From an uncultured Verrucomicrobiae bacterium (GTDB lineage Bacteria > Verrucomicrobiota > Verrucomicrobiia > Chthoniobacterales > Chthoniobacteraceae): 64,000 bases of DNA. This document shows positions 4,731 through 50,584 of the stretch, piece after piece. Numbering within the stretch: the first letter of the stretch is position 1; each line of letters begins with the position of its first letter. The notes under the pieces were generated by a model that saw nothing but the letters and a program-made list of their open reading frames with translations, was not told where the DNA came from and did no database searches. The DNA lies in contig CAVYKI010000010.1 in NCBI GenBank assembly GCA_963769025.1, forward strand, positions 384,001 through 448,000, in the 5' to 3' direction. The translations under genes were made by a program, and so were the position numbers.

Positions 4731-6746
<2,016 letters not shown>

Positions 6747-37398: not shown

Positions 37399-37533
37399 CT
37401 ACTTGAGCGGATCCTTTTTGCTGCAACCGCAGCCGCCCTTGCCGGCCTTTTTCGAGCGCGCGCGCAGCACGAGATACACCACCGCGCCGAGCACCGCCGC
37501 GACGACGAGGATCTGCTGGACGGTCTCGTTCAC
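37399..37533 (-). CDS. FeoB-associated Cys-rich small membrane protein
   Basis: 44 aa, one TM plus 'GGCGC'; GTG start overlaps the feoB stop. Confidence 0.75.
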   Translation of the reverse strand: MNETVQQILVVAAVLGAVVYLVLRARSKKAGKGGCGCSKKDPLK

Positions 37534-39614
37534 TGGAAGCCGAGCAGCCGCCCGCCCTGGTAAACGACAAACGCGCCGACCCACGCGAGCACGGTCATGT
37601 AAGCGATTTGGAACAGCGGCCAGCGCCACGAGTTCGTCTCGCGCCGCACGATGGCGACGGTGCTGATGCACTGCATCGCGAGGACGTAGAAGACCATGAT
37701 CGAAAGGCACACGAGCGGCGTGAAGACGGGCGTCCCGTCGGCACGGCGCTCGGCGCGCATCTGGCTGCGGAGATCCTCATTCTCCTCATCGGCGTCCTCG
37801 ATGTTGTAAATCTGGCCCATGGTGCTCACGAAAACTTCGCGCGCGGCGAACGAGGCGACAAGGCCGATGCCGATTTTCCAATCGTAGCCCAGCGGCGCGA
37901 TGACCGGCTCGATCGCGTGCCCCATCCGCCCGCCGATGCTGTGCGCGAGGGACTCGGACGGCGTGGGATCCGGCGTCGTGGGCTTCGGATAGCTGAGCAG
38001 CGCCCAGAGGATGACGCTGAGGGCGAGGATGACCGTGCCCGCCCGGCGGAGGAACAGCACCGCACGCTCCCACATCCGCTGCACGATGCCGCGCAACACG
38101 GGCGCGCGGTAAGGCGGCAGTTCGAGCAGCAGCATGGGCGTCTCGCTGCGCAGGATCGTCTTTTTGAAAAGGCCCGCCATGACGAACGCGGCGAGGATGC
38201 CGATCAGATACATGCACAGCATCACCCCCGCCTTGCTCCACACTCCCTGCGCGGGCATGAGCAGCGAAATCATGATCGCATACACCGGGAGCCGCGCGGA
38301 GCAGCTCATCAGCGGCGCGACGAGGATGGTGACGAAGCGGTCGTTGCGGTTCTCGATCGTGCGCGTCGCCATGATGCCTGGAATCGCGCACGCGAACGAA
38401 CTCAGCAGCGGGACAAACGATTTCCCGTGCAGGCCCACGCGCGACATCATGCGGTCCATGATGAACGCGGCGCGCGCCATGTAGCCGCTGTCCTCCAGCA
38501 GCCCGAGGAAGAAAAAGAGGATCAGGATTTGCGGGAGAAATATGACGACATTGCCCACGCCGCCGATCACGCCGTCCACGACAAGGCTCTGCAGATCGCC
38601 GGGCGGAAGGTGCGCGCCTGTCCATTTTGCGAGCGCCTCCATCCCGGCGCTGATCCACTCCATCGGCGCCTGCGCGACGACGAAGATGCACACGAACATC
38701 AGCACCATCATCCCGATGAACGCGATCCAGCCCCACAGCTTGTGCGTGAGGATCTGGTCCATGTGGTCGCTGAACGTCAGCCCGTGCGAATCCTCCCCGC
38801 GACGGTGCACGACGGAAGCGCACACTTCCGACACCCACGCGTAGCGCGCATCCACCGGCGCGGCGATCGGGTCCAGCCCGCTGAGCCGCAGCCGCTCGCG
38901 CGCGGCATGGATCTCCGCGAGCAGCGCGGCATTCCCTTTCACCTCCGCGCCAAGGCGTTCGTCTTCGAGCGAAAGGAGCAGCATCGCCTCCGGGCGCGTG
39001 CTTCCCGCGTGGCAATCGATGATGCGCGACAGCGCGGCGACCTCGCGTTCGAGCACGATGGGGAGCTGCGCCTTGCGGTCGGAAACGTGGAGCGTGGGAC
39101 GGGAGAGCGCCTGCTTGAGCTCGATGAGCCCCTGCCCGCGGCTCGCGACCATCGGGATCACCGGCACGCCCAGGCTGTCGCGCAACGCGAGCAGATCGAT
39201 CGACAGCCCGCGCTTTTCCGCGACGTCCACCATGTTCAGCGCGACGATGACGGGGATGTCCAGTTCGAGAAATTGCGCGACGAGGTAGAGATGCCGGTCG
39301 AGGTTCGACGCATCGAGCACCGCGATGATCGCATCCGGCCGCGGCGTCCCGGGCACGCGGCCCAGCAGCAAATCGCGCGACACCGCCTCGTCCGGCGAAC
39401 GCACCTGCAGGCTGTAGCTGCCCGGCAGATCGAGCAGTTCCATCGCCTCGCCGTGGCTGCCAAAAAATCGCCCCGTCTTTTTTTCCACCGTCACGCCGGG
39501 ATAGTTCCCCACTTTCTGACGCAGGCCCGTGAGGGCGTTGAAAATCGTGCTCTTCCCCGTGTTCGGATTTCCGGCGATGGCGATGCGTCGGAAGAGTTTT
39601 GGAAGGTCACCCAT
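37530..39614 (-). CDS. feoB: Ferrous iron transporter FeoB
   Basis: 'GNPNTGKS', 'VGNYPGVTVE', 'DLPG', 'EDSGYMARAA', 'MSCSARLP'. Confidence 0.97.
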   Translation of the reverse strand: MGDLPKLFRRIAIAGNPNTGKSTIFNALTGLRQKVGNYPGVTVEKKTGRFFGSHGEAMELLDLPGSYSLQVRSPDEAVSRDLLLGRVPGTPRPDAIIAVLDASNLDRHLYLVAQFLELDIPVIVALNMVDVAEKRGLSIDLLALRDSLGVPVIPMVASRGQGLIELKQALSRPTLHVSDRKAQLPIVLEREVAALSRIIDCHAGSTRPEAMLLLSLEDERLGAEVKGNAALLAEIHAARERLRLSGLDPIAAPVDARYAWVSEVCASVVHRRGEDSHGLTFSDHMDQILTHKLWGWIAFIGMMVLMFVCIFVVAQAPMEWISAGMEALAKWTGAHLPPGDLQSLVVDGVIGGVGNVVIFLPQILILFFFLGLLEDSGYMARAAFIMDRMMSRVGLHGKSFVPLLSSFACAIPGIMATRTIENRNDRFVTILVAPLMSCSARLPVYAIMISLLMPAQGVWSKAGVMLCMYLIGILAAFVMAGLFKKTILRSETPMLLLELPPYRAPVLRGIVQRMWERAVLFLRRAGTVILALSVILWALLSYPKPTTPDPTPSESLAHSIGGRMGHAIEPVIAPLGYDWKIGIGLVASFAAREVFVSTMGQIYNIEDADEENEDLRSQMRAERRADGTPVFTPLVCLSIMVFYVLAMQCISTVAIVRRETNSWRWPLFQIAYMTVLAWVGAFVVYQGGRLLGFQ

Positions 39615-39617
39615 GGC

Positions 39618-39884
39618 TCAGATTCGTTGCACGCGGATGCCCGCGGCTTCCGCCTTGCGCAGCGAAATGTGCGCGCCGCGGACCTTGAATTCCATCGGGT
39701 CGCCCAGCGGCGCAAAACGCACGACCTCGACCACCGTCCCGACCGTGAAGCCCATTTCCATCACCCGGCCGCGCATCGATCCGGGCACTTCCACGGCGAG
39801 CACCTTCGCGCGCTGTCCCGGTTGGAGCGCACTGAGAGGTTCCGCCTCGCTCCGGGGCTCCGCTGTCTCCGCGTTGTCACTCAT
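39618..39884 (-). CDS. feoA: FeoA
   Basis: 'RVMEMGF..G', 'APLGDP', 'SLRK.EA'. Confidence 0.92.
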   Translation of the reverse strand: MSDNAETAEPRSEAEPLSALQPGQRAKVLAVEVPGSMRGRVMEMGFTVGTVVEVVRFAPLGDPMEFKVRGAHISLRKAEAAGIRVQRI

Positions 39885-39890
39885 GGCGGC

Positions 39891-40133
39891 TCAGACTGCG
39901 AACCGCTCCACTTCCACGTGGTCGCAAAGTTCACGGCCCAGCGCCAGGCGCGTCCCCATCAGCAGGCAGATCACCGCAGCGCCGTCCGCGATTTTCCGCA
40001 CCACCACGTGGTCGCGGAAGCCCAGTTCACGCAGCCGAACGCAGTGCGGACAGTCCGGGCAGATGTGCCGGACACGCAACTGCTCGCCGCATTTTGCGGT
40101 CGCGAGCGTCAGTTTCGGAGTGGGGAAAAGCAT
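39891..40133 (-). CDS. Second FeoA-family protein with a CPDCPHC segment
   Basis: 'RLRELGF', 'GTRLALGRE'; start at MLFPTPK. Confidence 0.75.
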   Translation of the reverse strand: MLFPTPKLTLATAKCGEQLRVRHICPDCPHCVRLRELGFRDHVVVRKIADGAAVICLLMGTRLALGRELCDHVEVERFAV

Positions 40134-40157
40134 CGGTGTATTTCTTACTACAGTGCC

Positions 40158-40199
40158 TGAGATTGGGTCGCAAGAACAATTGCGATTGAGTCGCAATTG
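40158..40199. promoter_or_regulatory. Putative metal-regulator (Fur-family-like) operator, perfect site plus a weaker tandem copy
   Basis: CAATTGCGA-N5-TCGCAATTG (40177-40199) and TGAGATTGGGTCGCAA (40158-40173), just upstream of feo. Confidence 0.7.
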
Positions 40200-40302
40200 G
40201 CCTCGCGGACAGGTGAAATACCCGCCCGGAGGCACCGGATTAGGCGGTTTGTCCGCAATTTTTCCGATGTCGCACGCGCGGGAGCCGGACCACTGCCCGC
40301 AG

Positions 40303-41507
40303 TCAGCGGGAAGTACGGACTAGGCGCGCTTTGGGTGCCTGTGGGCGTCGGGAGGCAGTGAGCCACGGATGCGCGAGCGCGCCGGATGCGGACGCGCGTG
40401 CGGAAGCTTCCACCGCCAGCAGCGACGCGAGAAAATCCGCAGCGACGTCGGCTTCCGTTTTCGGGAGCTTGGAGAGGCGGCGGACAAACGGCTGCAGCGA
40501 CGTGCGACGGATCGCGGGGCGGAAACGGAGCGCGCCGTCTTGCTCGAAATAGGCGGAGCGGTAGAGGGCCGCGTCGATCATCGCGGGCGGCAGCGGCCCG
40601 CGCAGCCGGGTGATTTCGAGGAGGTGTTCGTAGTTCAGGGTGAGGTCGAGCAGATCGTCCGCGCCGCGGACCTCGCGCCATTTCTCCTCGTGGATGTTCT
40701 TCTCCCCTTCGATCTCGGACGAACCGGGCAGGCTGTTCGCATAACCCCAGAGCGTGGCGTAGGTGCCGTCGAGCGCTGTGTCGTTCAACTGCCGAGCCTG
40801 CCACACGGTGCCGTAGCGTCCGCTGCCGAGGACCTTTTCGAGCGCGTACTTTCCGGCGATGATCGTGCCAGGCTTGAATTGCTCGGCCTTTTCAACGGTC
40901 TCGTCCGCCTTCACGCTTTCGGCGAGCGGGAGTTCGATGGCTTCCTTGCCCGTGCTGAACTCGCGGTACTTTTTCGCCGCGGCTTTGCGCGGGCTGAAGA
41001 GGCGGCGGCCGGTGAGCATTTCAAAGACGGTGCAGCCGAGGCTCCACAGGTCCACGGCTGTGCTCAGCGGTGCGCCGATGATCAGTTCCGGCGCCATGTA
41101 TTCGCGCGTGCCGAAGGTGGAGCCCTGCTTGAAGCGGTTGTCGGCGCTGCCGAGGTCGGCGAGGCGCGCGGTGCCGGTGCGGGCGTCGTAGAGGATATTG
41201 TCGGGCTTGATGTCCGTGTGCGCGTAGCCGCAGCGGTGCAGGCGCTCGGTGGCGCGCAGGAGTTCGCGGGTCACGCGCTTCACGCGGGCGAGCGGCAGCG
41301 GCTCCGCGATCGAGCGCGTCGTCGAGGCTGCGCCCGTGCTTTTCGTAGGCCATGCACACGTGGCCGTCGTGGAGGAATGCCTCGTGCAGTGCCGATGATG
41401 TCCGGGCACTCGCCGAGTTCGCGGCGGAGGAGCTTGTGCAGCGACACCTCGAAGACAGCCCCCTTGCTGTAGCGGCGGCGCTGGATTTTGAGCGCGATTT
41501 TCTCCAC
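40303..41507 (-). CDS. SRPK-like Ser/Thr protein kinase with displaced glycine-rich loop (two +1 indels near 41392 and 41303)
   Basis: 'IALK', 'HTDIKPDN', 'ADLG', 'TREYMAPE', 'DLWSLGC..FEMLTG..LF.P', 'EHLLEI...GPLP', 'ADFL..LL', 'HPWL'. Confidence 0.88.
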
Positions 41508-41513
41508 GGCGAA

Positions 41514-42857
41514 TCAGTTGTCCGTGTTGTTCACGAATGCGCGGCGGATTTCGTAGAGCACGCGGCCGATGAGCCGGATGTCCTCGGTGATGATGCTCGC
41601 CTCGCCGGTCATGTCCTGTTTGAATTGCAGCCGCTTTTTGAAGCTCGTGACGAGCGGATACGGGATGTCCACGAGCACGAGGTTCGCCCCGTCGCGCGCG
41701 ACCATGGAGACGGACTGCACGCGGCCGGTCACGAGGCCGAATTCACGGTACGGGAAGTCGGCAAAGCGGATGCGGACCTTCTGGCCTGGCTTGATTTTTC
41801 CCGCGCCGCCCTGGTTCACCGACATGCGGCCGATGAGGCGCGAGGTCTCGGGCACGATGAGGAACACCTGGCGCCCGGCGGTCACGAACTGCTGGTCGCT
41901 CCAAAAATCGTAGAAGGCGACCACGCCGTCCGCGGGCGCGCGCAGGACGTAGTCCGCCTCCCACACGTCGATTTCGCCGCGGAGCTTGTTGAGGCTCACG
42001 CGCAGCTTTTCGCGCGCGAGCGTGAGCGCCTCGTGGCGGTCGTGCTCGATGTTGCGGAGTTCGCGCTCCATGCGCGACGCCTCGATCTCGGCATCGGTGA
42101 GATTCTTTTGCATGAGCCCGTCGCCGCGCATCTGGGAAAGCACGGCCATTTCCTGCTCCTGCAATTGCGCGGTGCTGATCGAGTCGCGGCGGTGCAGCAC
42201 TTTCAGCCGGTCGTATTTTTCCTGCGCGAGTTCGAGTTCGCGCCGGGTCATCTGCTGTTGCGCGCGCATGGCGGTGATCTGGCTCTGCTTGCCGGTGAGT
42301 TGCTGGCGCAGGAGGTCGCCGGCCTTCTGCGCGTAAGTGTCGGCGAACACGGTGCGGAACTGGTTGTACGCCCCGAGGAATTCCGCGTAGCCGTCCTGGA
42401 GGCGTCCGAGGCCCTCCTCGGGTTTGAATTCGATGTCGAATGTCGCAGCGTCGCCCGCGACGGCCGGTGCGAGACGCGCGAGCTTTTCCTTCAGCGCGAG
42501 AGCGACGGCTGCCTGCGAGGGGCTTTGGATCACCGCGAGGATGTCGCCCTTTTTCACCTTCTGCTTCTCGCTGGCCTGCAGGCTTTCGAGGTGTCCGCTT
42601 TGGCGCGCGACGACTTCCACGACGGGCTGCGTGCCGGTCACGCTGAGGCGCGCGGTGATCGTGTCGGGATACTTGATGATGACCGAAAGGATGAGCAGCA
42701 GCGTGAGGACCGCGGCGAGCATCGTGGTGCCGGATTGCAGCAGCCAGTGCGGCGGGCGGCCCATGAATTCGCGCACATCCGCGTTCATGAGCGCGAGCGG
42801 CTGCGGCGGCGGGATCACCGTGAGCGTGCGCTGGGGTTGAGGTTCGTCAGCCGGCAT
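41514..42857 (-). CDS. HlyD-family membrane fusion protein
   Basis: 'EFMGRPPHWLLQSG' + TM, 'VKKGDILA', coiled coil, 'LRAPADG', 'FPYREFG'. Confidence 0.92.
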   Translation of the reverse strand: MPADEPQPQRTLTVIPPPQPLALMNADVREFMGRPPHWLLQSGTTMLAAVLTLLLILSVIIKYPDTITARLSVTGTQPVVEVVARQSGHLESLQASEKQKVKKGDILAVIQSPSQAAVALALKEKLARLAPAVAGDAATFDIEFKPEEGLGRLQDGYAEFLGAYNQFRTVFADTYAQKAGDLLRQQLTGKQSQITAMRAQQQMTRRELELAQEKYDRLKVLHRRDSISTAQLQEQEMAVLSQMRGDGLMQKNLTDAEIEASRMERELRNIEHDRHEALTLAREKLRVSLNKLRGEIDVWEADYVLRAPADGVVAFYDFWSDQQFVTAGRQVFLIVPETSRLIGRMSVNQGGAGKIKPGQKVRIRFADFPYREFGLVTGRVQSVSMVARDGANLVLVDIPYPLVTSFKKRLQFKQDMTGEASIITEDIRLIGRVLYEIRRAFVNNTDN

Positions 42858-45079
42858 GGGTCGACGAAACCTCCAGTTCGAGTTGGTTGCGCACGAGCCG
42901 GTAGTACGCGCCGGCCTTCGAGACGAGATCGCCGTGCTGCCCGGTCTCCACGATGCGGCCCTGATCGATGACGACGATCTGGTCCGCGTCGCGCACGGTG
43001 CTGAGGCGGTGCGCGATGACGACGACCGTGCGGCCCTGCGCAAATTCACGGAGCGCCGCGATCACCGCGCTCTCGTTCTTCGTGTCGAGAGCGCTCGTGG
43101 CTTCGTCGAGGAAAAGGAAATCGGGATTGCGGTAGATCGCGCGCGCGAGCAGCAGGCGCTGGCGTTCGCCGCCGGAGAGTCCCTGCCCTTCCGCGCCGAC
43201 GACCGTCTCCGCGCCATTCGGCTGGTTGCGCACAAATTCCTCCATGCTCGCGAGCCGGATCGCCGCGCCCATGCGCATCGGATCGATCGTCTGGCTGCCC
43301 GGCACGACGTTCCTCGCAAACGTCCCGGAAAAAATGAATCCGTCCTGCATCACCACGCCGCAGCGCGCGCGCCACGCGTGTCCGTCGAGCGCACCGAGCG
43401 GCACATTGTCCACGTATATTTCGCCGCCGGTGGGGCGGTACAGGCCGAGCAGAAGTTTCAGCAGCGTCGTCTTGCCGCTGCCGCTCGCGCCGACGATCGC
43501 CGTCACTTTTCCCTGCGGGATGACGAGGTTGATGTCCTTCAGCACATCCGCGCGTCCGGCGCCGGGATAGCGGAAGCTGAGGCCGGAGATCGGTGAGCTT
43601 TCGCGACTCGGGAAAGTCGGACGTCGCGTGCGTTTCGTCCTCGTCCTCGTCCTTGTGGTCGTAGATTTCCTGCATCCGCTCGAGGCTCAGCCGCGCGTCC
43701 TGCGCGCTGTAGATGAATTCGATGATGCGGCCGATCGGCGAGTTGAGCTGTCCGACGATGTACTGCGTCGCGATCATCATGCCGAAGGTCATCTCGCCCT
43801 GCAGGACCGCGCGCGCGGCGAGGAATGAGATGAGGATGTTGCGGATGTTGGAAAGGACGGTGACTCCGAGGCGCTGCGTCTGCTTGAGCGCGAGGCTCTT
43901 TGCTTCGAGCTGGTAGTTGCGCATCGCGATGTGCTCCCAGTCCCACCGCTTGTCGCGCTGCAGGCCCTGGATTTTGATCTCGGGCATGCCGGCGACGATT
44001 TCCATCAGCGTGTCGCGCTCCTTCGCCTCGAGGACGAAGCGCTTGAAGTCGAGCATCCGGCGTTGCTTGAGAAAAATGAGGAGCCAGCCGACGGCGAGTG
44101 CCGAGAGGATCACGAAGGTGCGAGGATTTGCCAGCTGTAGAGTGCGAGCACCATCGCGAAGACGACGAACGTGAGCAGCGAGAAGACCACGTCGAGCGAG
44201 GACGACATCAGGAAGTCCTTCACGCGCCGGTGATCGCCGATGCGCTGCATGATGTCGCCGGCGGTGCGGCTGTCGAAGAACGGGCAGCGGGAGCCGCAGC
44301 AGCTTGCTCAGAAAATCCGCGATCATCGCGATGCTCACGCGCGAGCCGATGTGCAGGAGCAGCCAGCTCCGGATCATGTCCGCGGCGGTCTGGCTGAGCG
44401 CGAGCATCAGTTGCGCGGCGAGCAGGAGGTAGATGAAATGCAGATCGAGATTCCCGATGCCGTAGTCCACGACCGCCTGCGAGAGGAAGGGCAGGATCAG
44501 CTCCAACCCGAGACCGACGAACATCCCGACTCCGACTTGCAGGAGGAGTTTTTTGTAAGGCCGGAGGTAGTTGAAAAAGAACGCAAGCCCCTTGCGGCCG
44601 CGCTCCGCATCCTTGCGGCCCGAGGCGCTCTGCTCATGGAACGCGGGGGTGGTTTCCAGCAGCAGGTAGATTCCCGGCGCGTCGGCGGAAATGGGGGTTC
44701 CCGGCGGCGAACTCGCGCGGATGAATTCCTCCGGCGAATAGTCCACAAGGCCGTGCGCCGGGTCCGCGACGCGCACCTTGTTCCGCGTGAACTCATACAC
44801 CACGACGAAGTGATCCGCCTGCCAGTGTGCGATGCACGGCAGCGGCGCCTCGTCGCGCAGACGCATGTAGCTGAGGCGCACGGCGAGCGAGCGCAGGCCG
44901 ACTTTCTCCGCCGCCTCGGAAATGCCGAGCAGCGACACGCCGCCCTTGCCGATGTGGCAGAGTTCGCGCAGCCATCCCTGCGAAAATTCACGGCCGTGAT
45001 GCGTGCAGATCATCCGCAGCGCCGCGGGGCCGCAGTCCATGGCGTCGAGCTGCGGGTGGAACGGGAAACGTTTCTTCAT
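42847..45079 (-). CDS. Peptidase C39-containing ABC transporter (PCAT), frameshifted
   Basis: 'QLDAMDCGPAAL', 'HFVV', 'VADPA'; TM domain; 'GASGSGKTT', 'LSGGERQR', 'LDEATSALD'. Confidence 0.95.
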
Positions 45080-45094
45080 GCCCGTGCGCGCGGC

Positions 45095-46700
45095 CTAAAA
45101 GGAAAGATTGTGGCGCTGGGCGATGGTGCCATCGAGCTGGCCGAGCGTGGACCATGCGCCGAGGATGGCGAGGCGGGCTTCGAGCACGCGCATCTCGGAG
45201 GTGCGGAGATCCTCCTCGGCCTCCCGAAGCAGGCGCACGGGCACCGAGCCCTTCGCGATGCTGGAGGAGCTGCTCCTGCCACTTTTCCATGCTCGCCTTT
45301 TGCGAATGCCGCGCGGCGGCGAGCTGCTGCCGGCCGAACGCGATGGCACGGCAAAGTTCGCTGATGCGCTGACGCAGCCGCTGCTCGGCCTGCTCGCGGA
45401 GGACCTCGCTGCGCGCGAGTTCGGCCCGCGCGGTTTCGAGTTGCGCGCGTTCGGCGCGGAAAGTCCACGGCAGCGAAATCCGGGCGAGGGCGACACCTTC
45501 CCAGCCCCTGCCGCCGCTGCCGTCGGAGCCCGTCTTGTTCGACGCGCCGGAAAACTCCACCTCCAGCTTGGGCAGCATGTTGTTGCGCGCGCGACGGAGT
45601 TCCACTTCGCGGCGCTCGATTTCGTTGATGAGCAGCACGGCGATCGGCGCGTTTTCGAGCGCGCGCTGGATCGAGACGGCCGGGTTCGGATCGGCGGCAG
45701 GCATCGAGGCTTCGCGGATCGGTTCAAAGACCAGCCTCGATGCTGACACTCCCTGCGGTGCGCCGATCGCAAACCACAGTTCGTCCACGCGGTCGGACAC
45801 CAATTTGGTCGCGGACAGCCAGCGCTCCTGCGCGGTGGAGACGAGGACTTCCGCCTCCAGCACGTCGAGCTTCGATGCGGCACCCGCGGCCTGCCGTGCC
45901 TTTGCATCCTCGAGCACCGACTGCGCGCGGCGCAGGCTCGCGAGGAAATTTTTCTCGCTCAGCGCCGCGACCGCCGCGGCGAAATAGCCGGATTCGGCCG
46001 CACGGAGCATTTCGAGGATCTCCGCATTGCGCGTGGCCTCGGCCTGGTCGCGCAGCAGTTCGGCGATGCGGATGCCTGCGCGGTTCACACGCGGGTCGAG
46101 GCCGCGCAGCAGTTGCTGGCGCACCGTCAGCGTGTATTCCGAAGTCGTGCTGTTGACGTAGTCGTTGCGGAAATCGCCGGTGCTCGTCGCCACCTGCCCG
46201 GCTTGAAAGTCCACCTCGGTTCCCGTCACGAACCTTTTCGACACGCCGCCGCTCCCTGCGGCCTGCGACCATGTCCGGCCCTCGGGCGTGTCCGTCCGGA
46301 CCGTGCCGGTGAAGTTCGGATCGAATTGCGCCTTCGCAGTCTCGATGCCCGCTTTCGCGGTGCGTGCGGCGAAAGATGCGTCGCGGATCCGGAAGTTGCG
46401 CTGGATCCCGTAAAGCACGCAGTCGTCGAGCGTGAGCCGTCCGCTGGAGGCGATGTGCACCTCGGCAGGCGCGGCGCTCGGCAGACTGACCCGCGCGGGA
46501 GCGGGCGTCTGTTTCGCAATCGGGCGCGGCGCGGCGGTCCCGATGGCGCGTCCGTCCTCAGCTCCGGGCGCGATGGAAAATGCGCCGAAAAGGATCACCG
46601 CGATCGTCGCGGCGAGCGGCACCCCGGAGCCGCGGCGGCGCGGGCGGGGCTGCACACGTGGCGTGCTGGGCGTGCTCGGGCGGAAGTCAGAAGGTGTCAT
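45095..46700 (-). CDS. TolC-family outer membrane efflux protein (frameshift near 45250)
   Basis: 'LTLDDC....QRN', 'AQFDP', 'QQLLRG', 'SKLDVLEAE', 'LPKLEV'; start uncertain. Confidence 0.88.
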
Positions 46701-46760
46701 CCAGTCGAAAGGCGATCGTGCAGTGCGGAATGCAGCATTGGGAGAGCAGGATACCAGCCT

Positions 46761-46803
46761 AGAAAAAGAAAAAGCAGGAAGGCACAAAGTCCTTCCTGCT
46801 TTT
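46761..46803 (-). terminator. Intrinsic terminator between the precursor gene and tolC
   Basis: Minus strand AAAAGCAGGAAGG-actttgtg-CCTTCCTGCTTTT followed by TCTTTTT. Confidence 0.8.
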
Positions 46804-46876
46804 GAATCTTCCGACCCGGCGACGAAGTGGGACCCGCGGGCGGACCTTCAATCGGCACCGGGTTCCGTGCGGATGA

Positions 46877-47092
46877 CTACCAACCGCAGGGCTTCGGAGC
46901 GCAGCCGCGGCGGGACTTGCTGCCGGACTTCTTGCTCTTGGAGCCGCACTTCACCTTGGATTTCTTGCTCTTGCTCTTCTTGCACTTCACGGTCTTCACT
47001 TTCGTGACCTTGCAGCCGCCGCCGCCGGTGACAACTGCGGGTGCGTTGATTGCGTCGGACGCGAACTGGTCGAGGATGCTGATCTTCTTCAT
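46877..47092 (-). CDS. Double-glycine-leader precursor peptide with Lys/Ser/Cys-rich core (candidate RiPP/PCAT substrate)
   Basis: 71 aa; leader ...AINAPAVVTGG; GC3-biased codons; A/C-rich 5' leader; heads the TolC-PCAT-HlyD cluster. Confidence 0.85.
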   Translation of the reverse strand: MKKISILDQFASDAINAPAVVTGGGGCKVTKVKTVKCKKSKSKKSKVKCGSKSKKSGSKSRRGCAPKPCGW

Positions 47093-47570
47093 GATTGTGT
47101 GTGTTTGTGTTTTGTTTGTTTAACTGACTGGCAGATTTCTCTGCACGCGCCTCGTTTCTTATAATTTACAGACACCGTCAACAAAAATAAGAAATAAAAT
47201 GCACGGACCGCATGCCGTAGATGACGAATTGTTTTTGACCGGGTGCATTTACCAAACGTCAAACCTGCGGACGCGCTACTCGGCCATGGCCGGCGCAAGA
47301 CGTTGCGAAACAGGGGCCGGGGGCGACGGCGCTTAGCACACCACCACTTTCCGGCCCGCGACAATTCCGGCGCAGGTGCCTGCGGGTCTGGATATTGGGT
47401 GACTTACCGGAGCCCCCAAGGATGCGATGCAAGCCTCCAGTGCGTTCGCAGAGAGAGCCCGGCTGCATGCGTGTCGCTTCCGCCATGCCCCGTCGTTCGT
47501 TCACGCGCCCTGAGGAAAATGCTACTGATGAGTAAATCTGGTATGTTTACTGCTACTTTCCATAATCAAG

Positions 47571-48215
47571 ATGCCTATCCACGAAACAAACCGCAACCCT
47601 TCCTCCGGGCCACTCCGCTGGTCAGAGCGAGCGACAGTCCCAGTCTGCCCGGACGCGGAATCCAAACCGCTCCGCCGTTCCCGCCGGGCATTCACCCTCG
47701 TTGAAACCTTGGTTGCGGCGACGGTGGTCATCATCGCGCTCGGCGCGATCTTTATGGTGAGCAGCCGATGCATGGGGATCGTCCGCTCCTCGCAGAGCGT
47801 GGGCGTCGCCTCGGCCATTTTGCAGGAGCGCATGCAGCAGTTGCAGGCCACGGATTGGGAAACGCTGACTGACAGCGATTCCTACACGGATCAGGTGTGG
47901 ACCGATCCGGAGGATGGGACGACGGAAAATGTCGCCGGCCTCCTCAAGAGCGCGACCCTTTCGGCGGGCGCGTTCCAATTGCAAAACGCCGTGGAAACGA
48001 TCCGCGTGTCGGCATACCGGCCAGTCGCGGTCGCCGCCGCGGAACCGGCAGCGATCGTTGCGAGCCGGACGGCCACCACGCCGACTCTCACATCCGCGAC
48101 GACAAATCTCGGGGATGAGAAAATGGTCCGCATCGATGTCCGGCTCACGTGGACCGAAGGCAAGGCAGGCCTCCAGCGCTCACTCGGATTATCGGCCATC
48201 GTGGCCCGCAGATAG
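47571..48215 (+). CDS. Prepilin-type N-methylation domain protein
   Basis: 'RRAFTLVETLVA' plus hydrophobic helix; true start may be later. Confidence 0.82.
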   Translation: MPIHETNRNPSSGPLRWSERATVPVCPDAESKPLRRSRRAFTLVETLVAATVVIIALGAIFMVSSRCMGIVRSSQSVGVASAILQERMQQLQATDWETLTDSDSYTDQVWTDPEDGTTENVAGLLKSATLSAGAFQLQNAVETIRVSAYRPVAVAAAEPAAIVASRTATTPTLTSATTNLGDEKMVRIDVRLTWTEGKAGLQRSLGLSAIVARR

Positions 48216-48224
48216 GACGCTCCT

Positions 48225-48842
48225 ATGAAAACACCACTCCCACGCCTCCGCCGCAAAGCCGGTTTCACGCTCGTCGAGATGCTGATCGGCGCCACAGCGG
48301 CCTCGATCTTCCTCGGAGGACTGATGACCGGGAGCATCGCGCTCCAACGCTCGCTTTCCGCGAACGATCAGCTCGCCCGCGCCCAATCGGATATCCTCCG
48401 CGTGTCCGATTACATGACGCGGGACATCCGCAACGCGACAACCATCAACACGGCGGCGACGGGCTCAGTGCTCCTCACGGTGACGACCGGGGACTATTAC
48501 AACCGGAACGGCACTCCGAACAACCCCGCGGACGACGTTCCCAATTCCCCCGTCCTCGGGCGCACCACGGCGAGCTACGGAGCCAGCCCCGTGAGCATCC
48601 GCTACCTGAAGAGCGGGACGCGCATCGCCCGCGAAGTCACCCGGATCGACGCCGGTGTCTCCACCACGACCACGACTTGGATCGCCGACAATGTGGACAC
48701 TCTCAGCGTGGCTGCGGATGCGAATGGCAACATCACATTCACGTCGGCGACTGCCATGAACTACCGCGTCCGGAAGGCAGGATTCGAAGTCCCCTCGCTC
48801 TCCTTCGTGATGTCTTCAAAACCCCGAAACTCAACACCGTAA
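48225..48842 (+). CDS. Prepilin-type protein (PilW/GspJ-like)
   Basis: 'KAGFTLVEML', 'YMTRDIRNA'. Confidence 0.85.
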   Translation: MKTPLPRLRRKAGFTLVEMLIGATAASIFLGGLMTGSIALQRSLSANDQLARAQSDILRVSDYMTRDIRNATTINTAATGSVLLTVTTGDYYNRNGTPNNPADDVPNSPVLGRTTASYGASPVSIRYLKSGTRIAREVTRIDAGVSTTTTTWIADNVDTLSVAADANGNITFTSATAMNYRVRKAGFEVPSLSFVMSSKPRNSTP

Positions 48843-48847
48843 ATACC

Positions 48848-50584
48848 ATGCTCCTGTTCCCGAAAAAATCCAAGTCCACGGAAGGCGCCGTGCTCGTCGC
48901 CTCCATCCTCACCGTCGCAGTCCTGGCATCGATTTCCGCCGGCGTCCTGCTCACCGTCGGGGCCAAGCACCACGACAGCTACCACGCGGCAGGCTGGCGG
49001 GAAGCACTCACCGCCGCCGAATCCGGAGTCGAGCGGACCATGGCCGAGCTGCGCACCGCCATCGACGATCCAGCCAACGCATGGACCGGCTGGGTGGTCG
49101 TCGATTCGGCAGGGAAAACGGCGGCGTTACAGCAGATCAATCGCACTGGCCGCTGGCCGGCCGGCTACACCCTGCGCATGAACGCCACGCTGCCTCCGCA
49201 GGCCGGTGAGAGCCGGCAGACCCAGTACGCTGTGCTGGTCGATGTCCCCTCCACGCTGGCCACGACATCGAGGCGGTGGAACCAGTCGTATCGCATCCGC
49301 TCCACCGGCGTCACGGCGGTGCCCGGGGCGGCGATCGCCGCGGTGGACAAGCGCGACACACAGTTGCGGCGCCTGAGCCTCTTCATGGACCGGACGGTGG
49401 GCTTTCCCGGCAGCGGCTCGCAGCTCGCGAGGCCGCAGGCGACCAGGACCATCGAGGTCATCGCCAAGCCCGAGAGCGTTTACAAATACGGGGTGACTGC
49501 GGAGATCAACTTCAAGCTGAACAAGAAGACCATCATCGACGGCTATAATTCCAACTACCCGGAGAGTTCGACCAACGGCAAATACGATCCGACGAAACGG
49601 ACGGCAAACGGCGGCACGATCCTGGCCAACCGCTGGAAGAAGAAGCCGAAGCCGGATCAGGCGGCTGAAAAATTCGATGTCGGCAAGGCCACGATCTATG
49701 GCGACCTGATGGTCAAGGGCAGCATGAAGAACGTGAAGAATTTCGAGAACGTGCAGGGCAACAAGCTCACCAACGTGAGCATCGACACGCCGACGAACGT
49801 CGCGCCGGTGTGGACCTCGGTGACGGCAAACATCGCCACGTTGGACGGCAAAATCCCCGATGCACTGAAGGCGACCTACAAGACCGCAGAAAAGAATGCC
49901 AAGGCGGGCGGCCCGGTCGCCCAATTCGAGGCCAAGAGTGCCACGGCGGCGGCCGAACTGGCTGCCAAGGGGATGGAACTGCCCGGCGGCGCCGACCCTT
50001 CCAACCCGACGCGCTACAAAGTCGAGAAGATCGGCGTGGACAAGAAGACGGAATCGCTCGTCCTGAGCAATCCGCCCGGAGTGTCCGAAAGCTGGATTGA
50101 AATCTGGGTGACGGAGGAGATGAAGATCGAAAAGGGCGGCACGATGTTTGTCTCCAATGGCGTCCACGCGACGATTTACCTCGAAGGCAAGAAGGTCGAA
50201 ATCAAGGACACCAAGGCGGACAAGGGGGGCTTCATCATCGAAAGCGGCTTCGCCGGAGACCTGCAACTCATCGGCATCGAGGCAAAGGAAGACACCAAGA
50301 AGGAAACCGACGACGAGTATTCGCCGAAAAAGCGCAGCGGCAAGATCTCGATCTCCGATGCCGACTTCACCGGCGTGATCAATGCCCCGGACTGGGACGT
50401 GGACTTCAAGCCGAAGGACTGGGACAAGGATGACACCATCTACGGTGCCCAACTCTATGGCTCGGTCCTGGGACGCAAGGTCAAGATCGGCAACGGTGCG
50501 GACTACCACTACGACGCGGCGGTCACGGAGATCGGCAGCGTCACGATGTATTCGACCGCCGGCTGGAACGAGCTCGAGCGGTAG
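48848..50584 (+). CDS. PilX/GspK-like protein with large Lys-rich C-terminal beta domain
   Basis: 'EGAVLV' (no Glu5), 'ALTAAESGVE', 'YRIRSTG', 'FTGVINAP', 'HYD', terminal 'WNE'. Confidence 0.75.
   Translation: MLLFPKKSKSTEGAVLVASILTVAVLASISAGVLLTVGAKHHDSYHAAGWREALTAAESGVERTMAELRTAIDDPANAWTGWVVVDSAGKTAALQQINRTGRWPAGYTLRMNATLPPQAGESRQTQYAVLVDVPSTLATTSRRWNQSYRIRSTGVTAVPGAAIAAVDKRDTQLRRLSLFMDRTVGFPGSGSQLARPQATRTIEVIAKPESVYKYGVTAEINFKLNKKTIIDGYNSNYPESSTNGKYDPTKRTANGGTILANRWKKKPKPDQAAEKFDVGKATIYGDLMVKGSMKNVKNFENVQGNKLTNVSIDTPTNVAPVWTSVTANIATLDGKIPDALKATYKTAEKNAKAGGPVAQFEAKSATAAAELAAKGMELPGGADPSNPTRYKVEKIGVDKKTESLVLSNPPGVSESWIEIWVTEEMKIEKGGTMFVSNGVHATIYLEGKKVEIKDTKADKGGFIIESGFAGDLQLIGIEAKEDTKKETDDEYSPKKRSGKISISDADFTGVINAPDWDVDFKPKDWDKDDTIYGAQLYGSVLGRKVKIGNGADYHYDAAVTEIGSVTMYSTAGWNELER

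Follow-up and report, generated by a model that had tools for sequence, protein, structure and literature searches.

The stretch of DNA considered here (the window, 64,000 nucleotides (nt) long, positions 384,001 to 448,000 of contig CAVYKI010000010.1) carries on its minus strand five genes encoding a short precursor peptide with a double-glycine leader, a TolC-like outer-membrane factor, a C39-peptidase ATP-binding cassette (ABC) exporter (PCAT), an HlyD-type periplasmic adaptor, and a Ser/Thr protein kinase whose sequence points to kinship with the eukaryotic SR-protein kinases (SRPKs). In the reading favored here, to which we give a probability of about 0.6, the kinase would phosphorylate the basic-repeat core of the precursor many times in the cytoplasm, guided by the leader, and the core would then be released by the C39 domain and exported. 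The features of the cluster are listed below, with positions counted in the window; related loci are numbered with the prefix L.

47093..47570, minus strand: 5' intergenic region, presumed promoter region of the precursor, of lower GC (0.57-0.60)
46877..47092, minus strand: precursor gene, 71 amino acids (aa), intact, with a double-glycine leader conserved in relatives
46770..46803, minus strand: intrinsic-terminator-like hairpin directly 3' of the precursor gene, 13-bp GC-rich stem followed by a T run
~45095..46700, minus strand: TolC-like outer-membrane factor (Pfam OEP, E 3e-26; TIGR01844), one frame change at ~45246
42847..45079, minus strand: PCAT (Peptidase_C39, E 4e-30; ABC_membrane; ABC_tran, E 3e-31)
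41514..42857, minus strand: HlyD-type periplasmic adaptor, intact (HlyD_3; TIGR01843, E 1e-31)
40303..41507, minus strand: SRPK-family Ser/Thr kinase, GTG start (Pkinase, E 1e-33), two frame changes
41197-41220 (HTDIKPDN), 41149-41157 (DLG), 41086-41094 (APE), minus strand: kinase catalytic motifs, as read in the sequence
~40636-40956, minus strand: family-specific kinase insert between the αF and αG regions, from sequence comparison
40789..40854, minus strand: putative transposed Gly-rich (ATP-binding) β-hairpin within the insert, from profile alignment to Sky1p

The genes follow one another in the order precursor, TolC, PCAT, HlyD, kinase. The end of the PCAT gene and the start of the HlyD gene share 11 nt, and 6 nt separate the HlyD stop from the GTG start of the kinase. 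The type I export set is complete, with a C39 domain carrying its catalytic Cys, ABC membrane and ATPase domains, HlyD, and TolC. Indeed, the C39 residues Cys (DAMDCGP), His (DHFVV), and Asp (ADPAHG) are all there, and the best NCBIfam models of the PCAT are NHLP and bacteriocin cleavage/export transporters; its scores stay below the cut-offs of TIGR03796 and TIGR01193 only because frame breaks split the gene. Domain scans of the cluster gave no dehydratase, cyclase, radical-SAM, or YcaO domain, and no tailoring gene is conserved nearby. The original prediction, made from the letters of the DNA, had described five co-oriented genes in this order, the PCAT/HlyD overlap, the 6-nt gap, and the lack of these four enzyme types; all of this holds, and domain matches identify the four genes other than the precursor. 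With a short precursor, a conserved leader, and a variable core, the make-up would suit a cluster for a peptide made on the ribosome and modified after translation (RiPP).

Precursor peptides and recurrence of the module

In the window precursor the leader spans residues 1-24, with VTGG at its end. Of the 47 aa that form the core, 18 are K/R, 10 are S/T (every one of them adjoining K/R), 5 are Cys, and none is D/E. It is the single precursor of this kind in the window's genome. Database relatives (58 at E <= 1e-3) are unnamed or called 'hypothetical' and belong to no Pfam family. A leader-pattern search located precursors in 27 of 37 loci, L024 having two of them, for 28 distinct precursors; L037 has a leader match by tblastn, and the other nine contigs stop short of the expected precursor position. 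Conservation is far stronger in the leader (consensus MKxSILDQFAxDAINAPAxVTGG) than in the core, and F10, A11, T22, G23, and G24 are invariant among 21 aligned precursors.

Three kinds of core are found: K/S repeats framed by Cys, among them the window core; R/T repeats devoid of Cys; and R/S repeats, which in L033 read RSRSRSRS. The KS-type cores carry 2-5 conserved Cys, placed at both ends. Taken together, the 28 distinct cores consist of 32% K/R, 25% S/T, 19% G, and 0.9% D/E. Alternation of S/T with K/R is seen in all 28, and 236 of the 296 core S/T residues (80%) adjoin K/R. By simple arithmetic on these counts, 236 phosphates at ~1.5-2 negative charges each face 379 positive charges, so that phosphorylation of the 236 sites would roughly cancel the positive charge of the cores. 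In a tree of the kinases, from which 9 of 29 kinase open reading frames (ORFs) were excluded as truncated or lacking a paired precursor, the RT cores all fall in one kinase clade (7/7, support 97/97).

The hairpin that follows the precursor gene in the window has counterparts in the related loci. Downstream of 27 of the 28 precursors, a stretch of 110 nt has a much more stable fold than its mononucleotide shuffles, 30 for each (z < -2; the mean z is -5.1), and by eye a perfect hairpin with a T run behind it is seen in most. A terminator after the precursor is the usual bacteriocin/RiPP arrangement and gives an excess of precursor transcript; the hairpin at 46770-46803 is probably an attenuator setting the ratio of precursor to machinery. 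A pattern scan of 46500-47700 gave no sigma-70-like promoter site, and an Rfam search over 40000-47700 gave two matches only, both far under gathering scores. The RT-type loci L038, L041, L044, and L049 have, upstream of the terminator hairpin, a second hairpin of identical sequence within ~30 nt of the precursor stop; at this place a fold is seen in other RT-type loci too, with a different sequence. This second RT-type hairpin may serve RNA stability or regulation. A tandem of two different KS-type precursor genes, each with its own terminator-like hairpin, is found between the kinase and PCAT genes at L024:3744-4579.

The arrangement recurs well beyond the window. When a single genome of each prokaryotic species was scanned, 18 loci came up, from 17 metagenome-assembled genomes (MAGs) of Verrucomicrobiota and one of Planctomycetota (phylum as recorded), and in all 18 an HlyD and/or PCAT gene adjoins the kinase gene in the same orientation. 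TolC lies within the cluster in 4 of them. Among 80 metagenome loci, 18 hold a full family kinase, adjoined by HlyD and/or PCAT in 15; in the three exceptions the contig is too short on the relevant side (L044, 1589 nt; L050, 1268 nt; L047, kinase at the contig start). The other 62 metagenome loci (L052-L113) match mainly the kinase core and were set aside as other kinases, of which L057, L061, and L071 may be distant family members. Overall, the kinase is linked to HlyD and/or PCAT in 33 of 36 related loci, and this through at least four gene orders: precursor-TolC-PCAT-HlyD-kinase, precursor-PCAT-HlyD-kinase, HlyD-kinase-precursor-PCAT, and kinase-precursor-PCAT-HlyD. Because it recurs in related loci, the five-gene arrangement is not a chance adjacency, and the recurrence of the kinase beside PCAT/HlyD and short ORFs with a double-glycine leader and a basic-Ser/Thr repeat core, which the original prediction had put forward as a test, is borne out in both the genome and the metagenome sets. 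Beyond the module, any one gene family occurs in at most 6 of the 21 loci longer than 6 kb, as judged with an ORF filter trained on the window's genome that may drop genes. All 36 related loci come from uncultured Verrucomicrobiota/Planctomycetota MAGs or from metagenomes, so that the system is reachable only by heterologous expression. One of them, L032, holds the full module including TolC at 60% GC; its label, Akkermansia muciniphila, looks doubtful at that value, given what we take to be the GC content of the species.

The kinase family, its glycine-rich hairpin, and predicted leader docking

Of 7999 candidates scored in a word-index search with the kinase, 398 match at E <= 1e-5. Among these 398, the best 120 are 40-100% identical, mostly 380-400 aa long, and carry source names that say only 'protein kinase'. 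An exhaustive search gave 48 cluster representatives (50% identity) at E <= 1e-30, of which 21, with identities as low as 31%, match in one stretch of at least ~290 residues. Family proteins are ~385-400 aa long, with Pkinase as their sole domain. No full-length relative of the window kinase was found in 400 other genomes of its phylum, of which 7 match through the catalytic core only (query 35-170), and a family profile gave nothing at E <= 1e-40 in 400 other genomes of the phylum of genome G401 (4 candidates scored per genome). The ESM Atlas yielded nothing beyond generic eukaryotic CMGC kinase clusters (no structural search was made). One relative, P0121 (716 aa), has an extra N-terminal kinase-like region, with weak ABC1 and APH matches, before the permuted kinase, and may be a tandem or fused kinase.

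Kinship with SRPKs, proposed in the original prediction, is indicated by both sequence profile and fold. A 31-member profile compared with solved structures has Sky1p as its best match (E 2.4e-56, 194 bits), followed by SRPK1/2 at 173-177 bits (~1e-50), CLK/DYRK at no more than 153 bits (~1e-43), and PRP4 at ~1e-43 or weaker. An AlphaFold2 model of the family member P0002 (predicted local distance difference test (pLDDT) 89.5, predicted template modelling score (pTM) 0.87) superposes on SRPK2 with Z 30.7 and a root-mean-square deviation of 1.9 A over 271 residues, and on SRPK1 with Z 30.2 and ~2 A over ~272; SRPK1 and SRPK2 are also its top Foldseek matches (E 6e-17). CLK and DYRK come within ~1-2 Z of the SRPKs in the fold comparison. 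Hence, the fold alone assigns only the CMGC group, and it is the sequence profile that points to SRPKs over other CMGC kinases.

The family shares with Sky1p, SRPK1, and SRPK2 the motifs HTDIKPxN, DLG rather than DFG, and TREY..PE, as well as an SRPK-like region from αG to the C-terminus that ends in HPWL. The β3 Lys, the αC Glu, HxDxKxxN, DLG, APE, and the GxG of the Gly-loop are invariant or nearly so among 41 members, down to 28% identity, which argues for an active enzyme. The differences are also clear. In SRPKs the catalytic loop is separated from DLG by a large spacer insert; the present family has none, and only ~13 residues lie between HTDIKPDN and DLG. Moreover, the family is bacterial and, by sequence, its Gly-rich β1-β2 hairpin lies not at the N-terminus but in a ~120-residue insert after αF.

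Several observations bear on this unusual topology. The N-termini of family members lie only 2-30 residues before β3 (motif VALKIQRRRY), none has GxGxxG there, and the canonical kinase topology, with an N-terminal β1-Gly-loop-β2, is therefore not that of the family. Within the C-lobe insert, which is bounded by an LFxPR motif after αF and an NYEH motif before αG, the motif GKY-L---LG-G-F-TVW is conserved, and its G-x-G and Trp are invariant in the 41 members, including sequences only 28% identical. Profile positions 219-242 align to Sky1p residues 20-43, which directly precede the Sky1p residue matched to profile position 2, in the β3 region. At these positions AlphaFold2 predicts two strands with pLDDT 93-98, and the structural alignments begin at SRPK1 residue 103 and Sky1p residue 181, that is, after the hairpins of these proteins themselves. 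We read the family as active kinases in which the ATP-binding hairpin would be supplied from elsewhere in the chain and would pack onto the N-lobe. If so, the protein-kinase fold tolerates a moved ATP-binding hairpin. In full-text searches of literature other than subscription-only sources and supplements, no published account of a protein kinase permuted in this way was found; the same scope applies to the novelty of the system, discussed below.

Docking predictions link the insert to the precursor. The modeled complex of the L034 kinase with its own precursor scores 0.74 (runs 0.74, 0.73, and 0.75), and the best of three controls 0.01; at least 65% of contacts agree between runs, and the partner has pLDDT of at least 53. 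In the confident contacts, leader residues 1-25 meet kinase αC (18-29) and kinase residues 177-198 and 270-290, which are the conserved family-specific insert motifs flanking the transposed hairpin. The model thus supports recognition of the leader by the kinase insert.

Proposed mechanism, alternatives, and known systems

The sequence of events that we propose would begin with a surplus of precursor, owing to the terminator behind the precursor gene. The double-glycine leader of this peptide would dock on the family-specific insert of the kinase, which would phosphorylate many of the Ser/Thr residues alternating with Lys/Arg in the core, largely cancelling the strong positive charge. The C39 domain of the PCAT would then cut after VTGG, and the core would leave through the ABC/HlyD/TolC channel. 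Outside the cell, the product would either stay a phosphopeptide or be dephosphorylated into a polycationic antimicrobial. The sequences themselves show the gene content, the conservation of the module, the SRPK kinship, the transposed Gly-loop at the level of the sequence, and the repeat cores. From the co-located KS-, RT-, and RS-repeat precursors we infer that the core is the kinase substrate, and the number of phosphates and the extracellular role of the product are likewise inferences. RS repeats are the classic SRPK substrate (SRPK1/Sky1p), and the presumed substrates are here basic/hydroxy dipeptide repeats of the same general type, with a literal RSRSRSRS in L033.

Some points weigh against this proposal. 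Strict specificity for Arg-Ser is a trait of SRPK1, yet the cores here are mostly Lys-Ser or Arg-Thr. The match between kinase clade and core type was rejected as independent evidence of co-evolution, the switch from KS to RT being a single event in one clade. The docking is a prediction from custom alignments for each partner, and its mark, reached by 116 of 157 solved complexes and by 2 of 215 mismatched pairs, has a calibration whose counts are only rough. Finally, the alignment of the hairpin is a 16-bit local match with a domain E of 0.04, to which conservation and pLDDT are added.

The gene content could also be that of a polycationic bacteriocin or microcin that leaves through the PCAT unmodified, with the kinase in a regulatory or immunity role in which it might phosphorylate, for instance, the transporter or some target in the cell. 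A PCAT, HlyD, and TolC are all that class II bacteriocins and microcins with double-glycine leaders need, and cationic peptides can be antimicrobial unmodified; however, charge alone would not require that S/T alternate with K/R in 28 of 28 cores, the model places the leader on the kinase insert, and linkage to the kinase is kept through at least four gene orders. We consider this explanation unlikely. The likeness to class II microcin and bacteriocin export is otherwise close (C39 ABC exporter, HlyD, TolC, double-glycine leader, small precursor gene and then a terminator), with the differences that a conserved kinase is present here and that the cores are low-complexity basic-Ser/Thr sequences, not hydrophobic or amphipathic ones. 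A kinase-like protein that is catalytically dead and serves as a leader-binding chaperone, a recognition element for export only, would agree with the missing N-terminal Gly-loop and with a predicted interface that involves the leader and not the core. Yet a pseudokinase is not expected to keep the β3 Lys, αC Glu, HxDxKxxN, DLG Asp, and GxG hairpin down to 28% identity, and we regard this possibility as hardly probable at all.

Transient phosphorylation could also lead to dehydro-amino acids and Cys cross-links, with a lyase/cyclase that is unrecognised or encoded elsewhere. The synthetases of class III/IV lanthipeptides (LanKC, LanL) start with a kinase step, in which a Ser/Thr kinase domain works on a leader-bearing precursor, and the Cys residues at both ends of the KS-type cores would suit such a route, as would the weak NCBIfam matches of the window kinase to LanL and LanKC. 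However, these matches (NF038150, 52.7 bits against a cut-off of 650; NF038151, 27.7 against 575) span the kinase core only. The ~400-aa kinase is of CMGC/SRPK type and has no lyase/cyclase domain, no such gene is conserved in the neighborhood, and the RT-type cores are entirely without Cys. On these scores, and with no conserved neighboring lyase/cyclase, the lanthipeptide-like reading was rejected as very unlikely.

If, as we propose, the kinase phosphorylates the cores, the cluster stands for an undescribed class of ribosomal natural products whose class-defining enzyme is a relative of SR-protein kinases, and for a compact leader-guided route to polyphosphorylated peptides. The question bears on the origin of bacterial CMGC/SRPK-type kinases and on how cells handle highly cationic peptides ahead of export. 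We tentatively go one step further, at slightly less than even odds: the cluster would define a new RiPP class built on a bacterial descendant of the eukaryotic SRPK lineage, the first natural eukaryote-type kinase with its hairpin transposed into the C-lobe, whose insert grips the leader while the enzyme polyphosphorylates RS/KS/RT repeats. A nucleic-acid-binding polycation would thereby become an approximately neutral, safely exportable polyphosphopeptide, a counterpart of SR-protein and protamine phosphorylation, and the product outside would be a phosphopeptide (metal/mineral binding, signalling) or an antimicrobial once dephosphorylated. In SR proteins and protamine, phosphorylated by SRPK1, and in diatom silaffins, the charge of basic Ser-rich sequences is likewise offset by multiple phosphorylation. 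These systems are eukaryotic and work in the nucleus or the secretory pathway, so that they are functional analogies only; the presumed SRPK-type substrate is here a small exported peptide with a double-glycine leader and mostly a K/S or R/T core.

No published description of such a kinase-peptide-export system was found in the full-text literature, in line with the original prediction, which knew of no described class with this composition. In PMC12639078, phosphorylation is called rare in natural-product biosynthesis. Its RiPP examples comprise microcin C, the HPrK-type kinase products paeninodin and pseudomycoidin, phospeptin (LanM-like enzyme), salivaricin 10, and cyanobactins, with a kinase domain in the macrocyclase of the last; none of these is similar to the present module. 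Phospeptin, paeninodin/pseudomycoidin, and cyanobactins are, like the product proposed here, ribosomal peptides with phosphate as the final modification (PMC12639078). They differ in enzyme family, precursor, and export, and as described there none has a stand-alone SRPK-type kinase, a PCAT, or repeat cores.

Frame breaks and flanking genes

Following the three reading frames across the cluster located six single-base frame changes, one in the TolC gene (~45246), three in the PCAT gene (~44281, ~44119, ~43591), and two in the kinase gene (~41390, ~41303). A codon-usage Viterbi segmentation trained on the window's genome placed the same six sites to within a few bases to ~12 nt. Six breaks in 6.8 kb, with homopolymer runs at none of them, could mean that the indels are real and that the cluster, as an array of pseudogenes, is decaying. 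However, once the frames are followed no in-frame stop is left, and on either side of the breaks the protein pieces share 81-95% identity with the intact proteins of L034. Moreover, such breaks occur throughout the window's genome: over 4.80 Mb of coding sequence the same detector flags 2233 frameshift candidates, or 0.47 per kb, which is ~27 times the rate in control loci, the 18 from other MAGs (4 candidates in 236 kb, 0.017 per kb). By the detector criterion the cluster counts 5, a number equalled or exceeded in 21.7% of 779 segments of equal size across the genome. Decay was rejected on this genome-wide frequency and appears highly improbable.

Comparison with relatives agrees. Contigs from four sediment-metagenome runs, mostly 85-95% alike, show a difference of exactly one base at all six sites (five bases absent, among them those at 45246 and at the two kinase sites, and one extra C), and the relatives are in frame; the further indels listed against these contigs are three compensating pairs only. 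Relatives' contigs were used for this comparison, the highest share of sampled words in public read runs being 0.11. The six breaks are very probably assembly errors, with a small chance left for real indels in the strain, and the cluster is probably functional in the organism. The original prediction had noted indels in the kinase and PCAT genes, which are indeed present in the assembly, with the TolC gene broken too; it had also held that real ones would mean a dead cluster, and the genome-wide rate and the in-frame relatives make them look like errors of assembly.

The assembly of the window's genome is 83% complete, in 13 contigs, and this completeness may be partly an effect of the frameshifts. 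'Pseudogene' calls anywhere in this genome need caution. Outside the cluster, the window holds 19 further frameshift candidates, for example near 5043, 14166, 17790, 30519, 58395, 61215, and 63099. In the long-contig MAG of L019, the PCAT ATPase region (L019:13123-13809) falls in three frames by tblastn and the detector flags it too; it is another assembly with indel problems.

The cluster is flanked on one side by feoA-feoA-feoB and a sensor histidine kinase gene and on the other by pseudopilin genes. The feoA-feoA-feoB ferrous-iron transport operon (37530-40235, minus strand) lies directly downstream of the kinase gene and on the same strand. A link between feoAB and the module was considered and rejected: the two are side by side in the window, and this is not kept in other loci. 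At 47571-50584 (plus strand), divergent from the cluster, a pair of pseudopilin-like genes carries the N-terminal methylation motif (PF07963); downstream of the pair, a larger ORF has a weak DUF7305 match, under cut-off.

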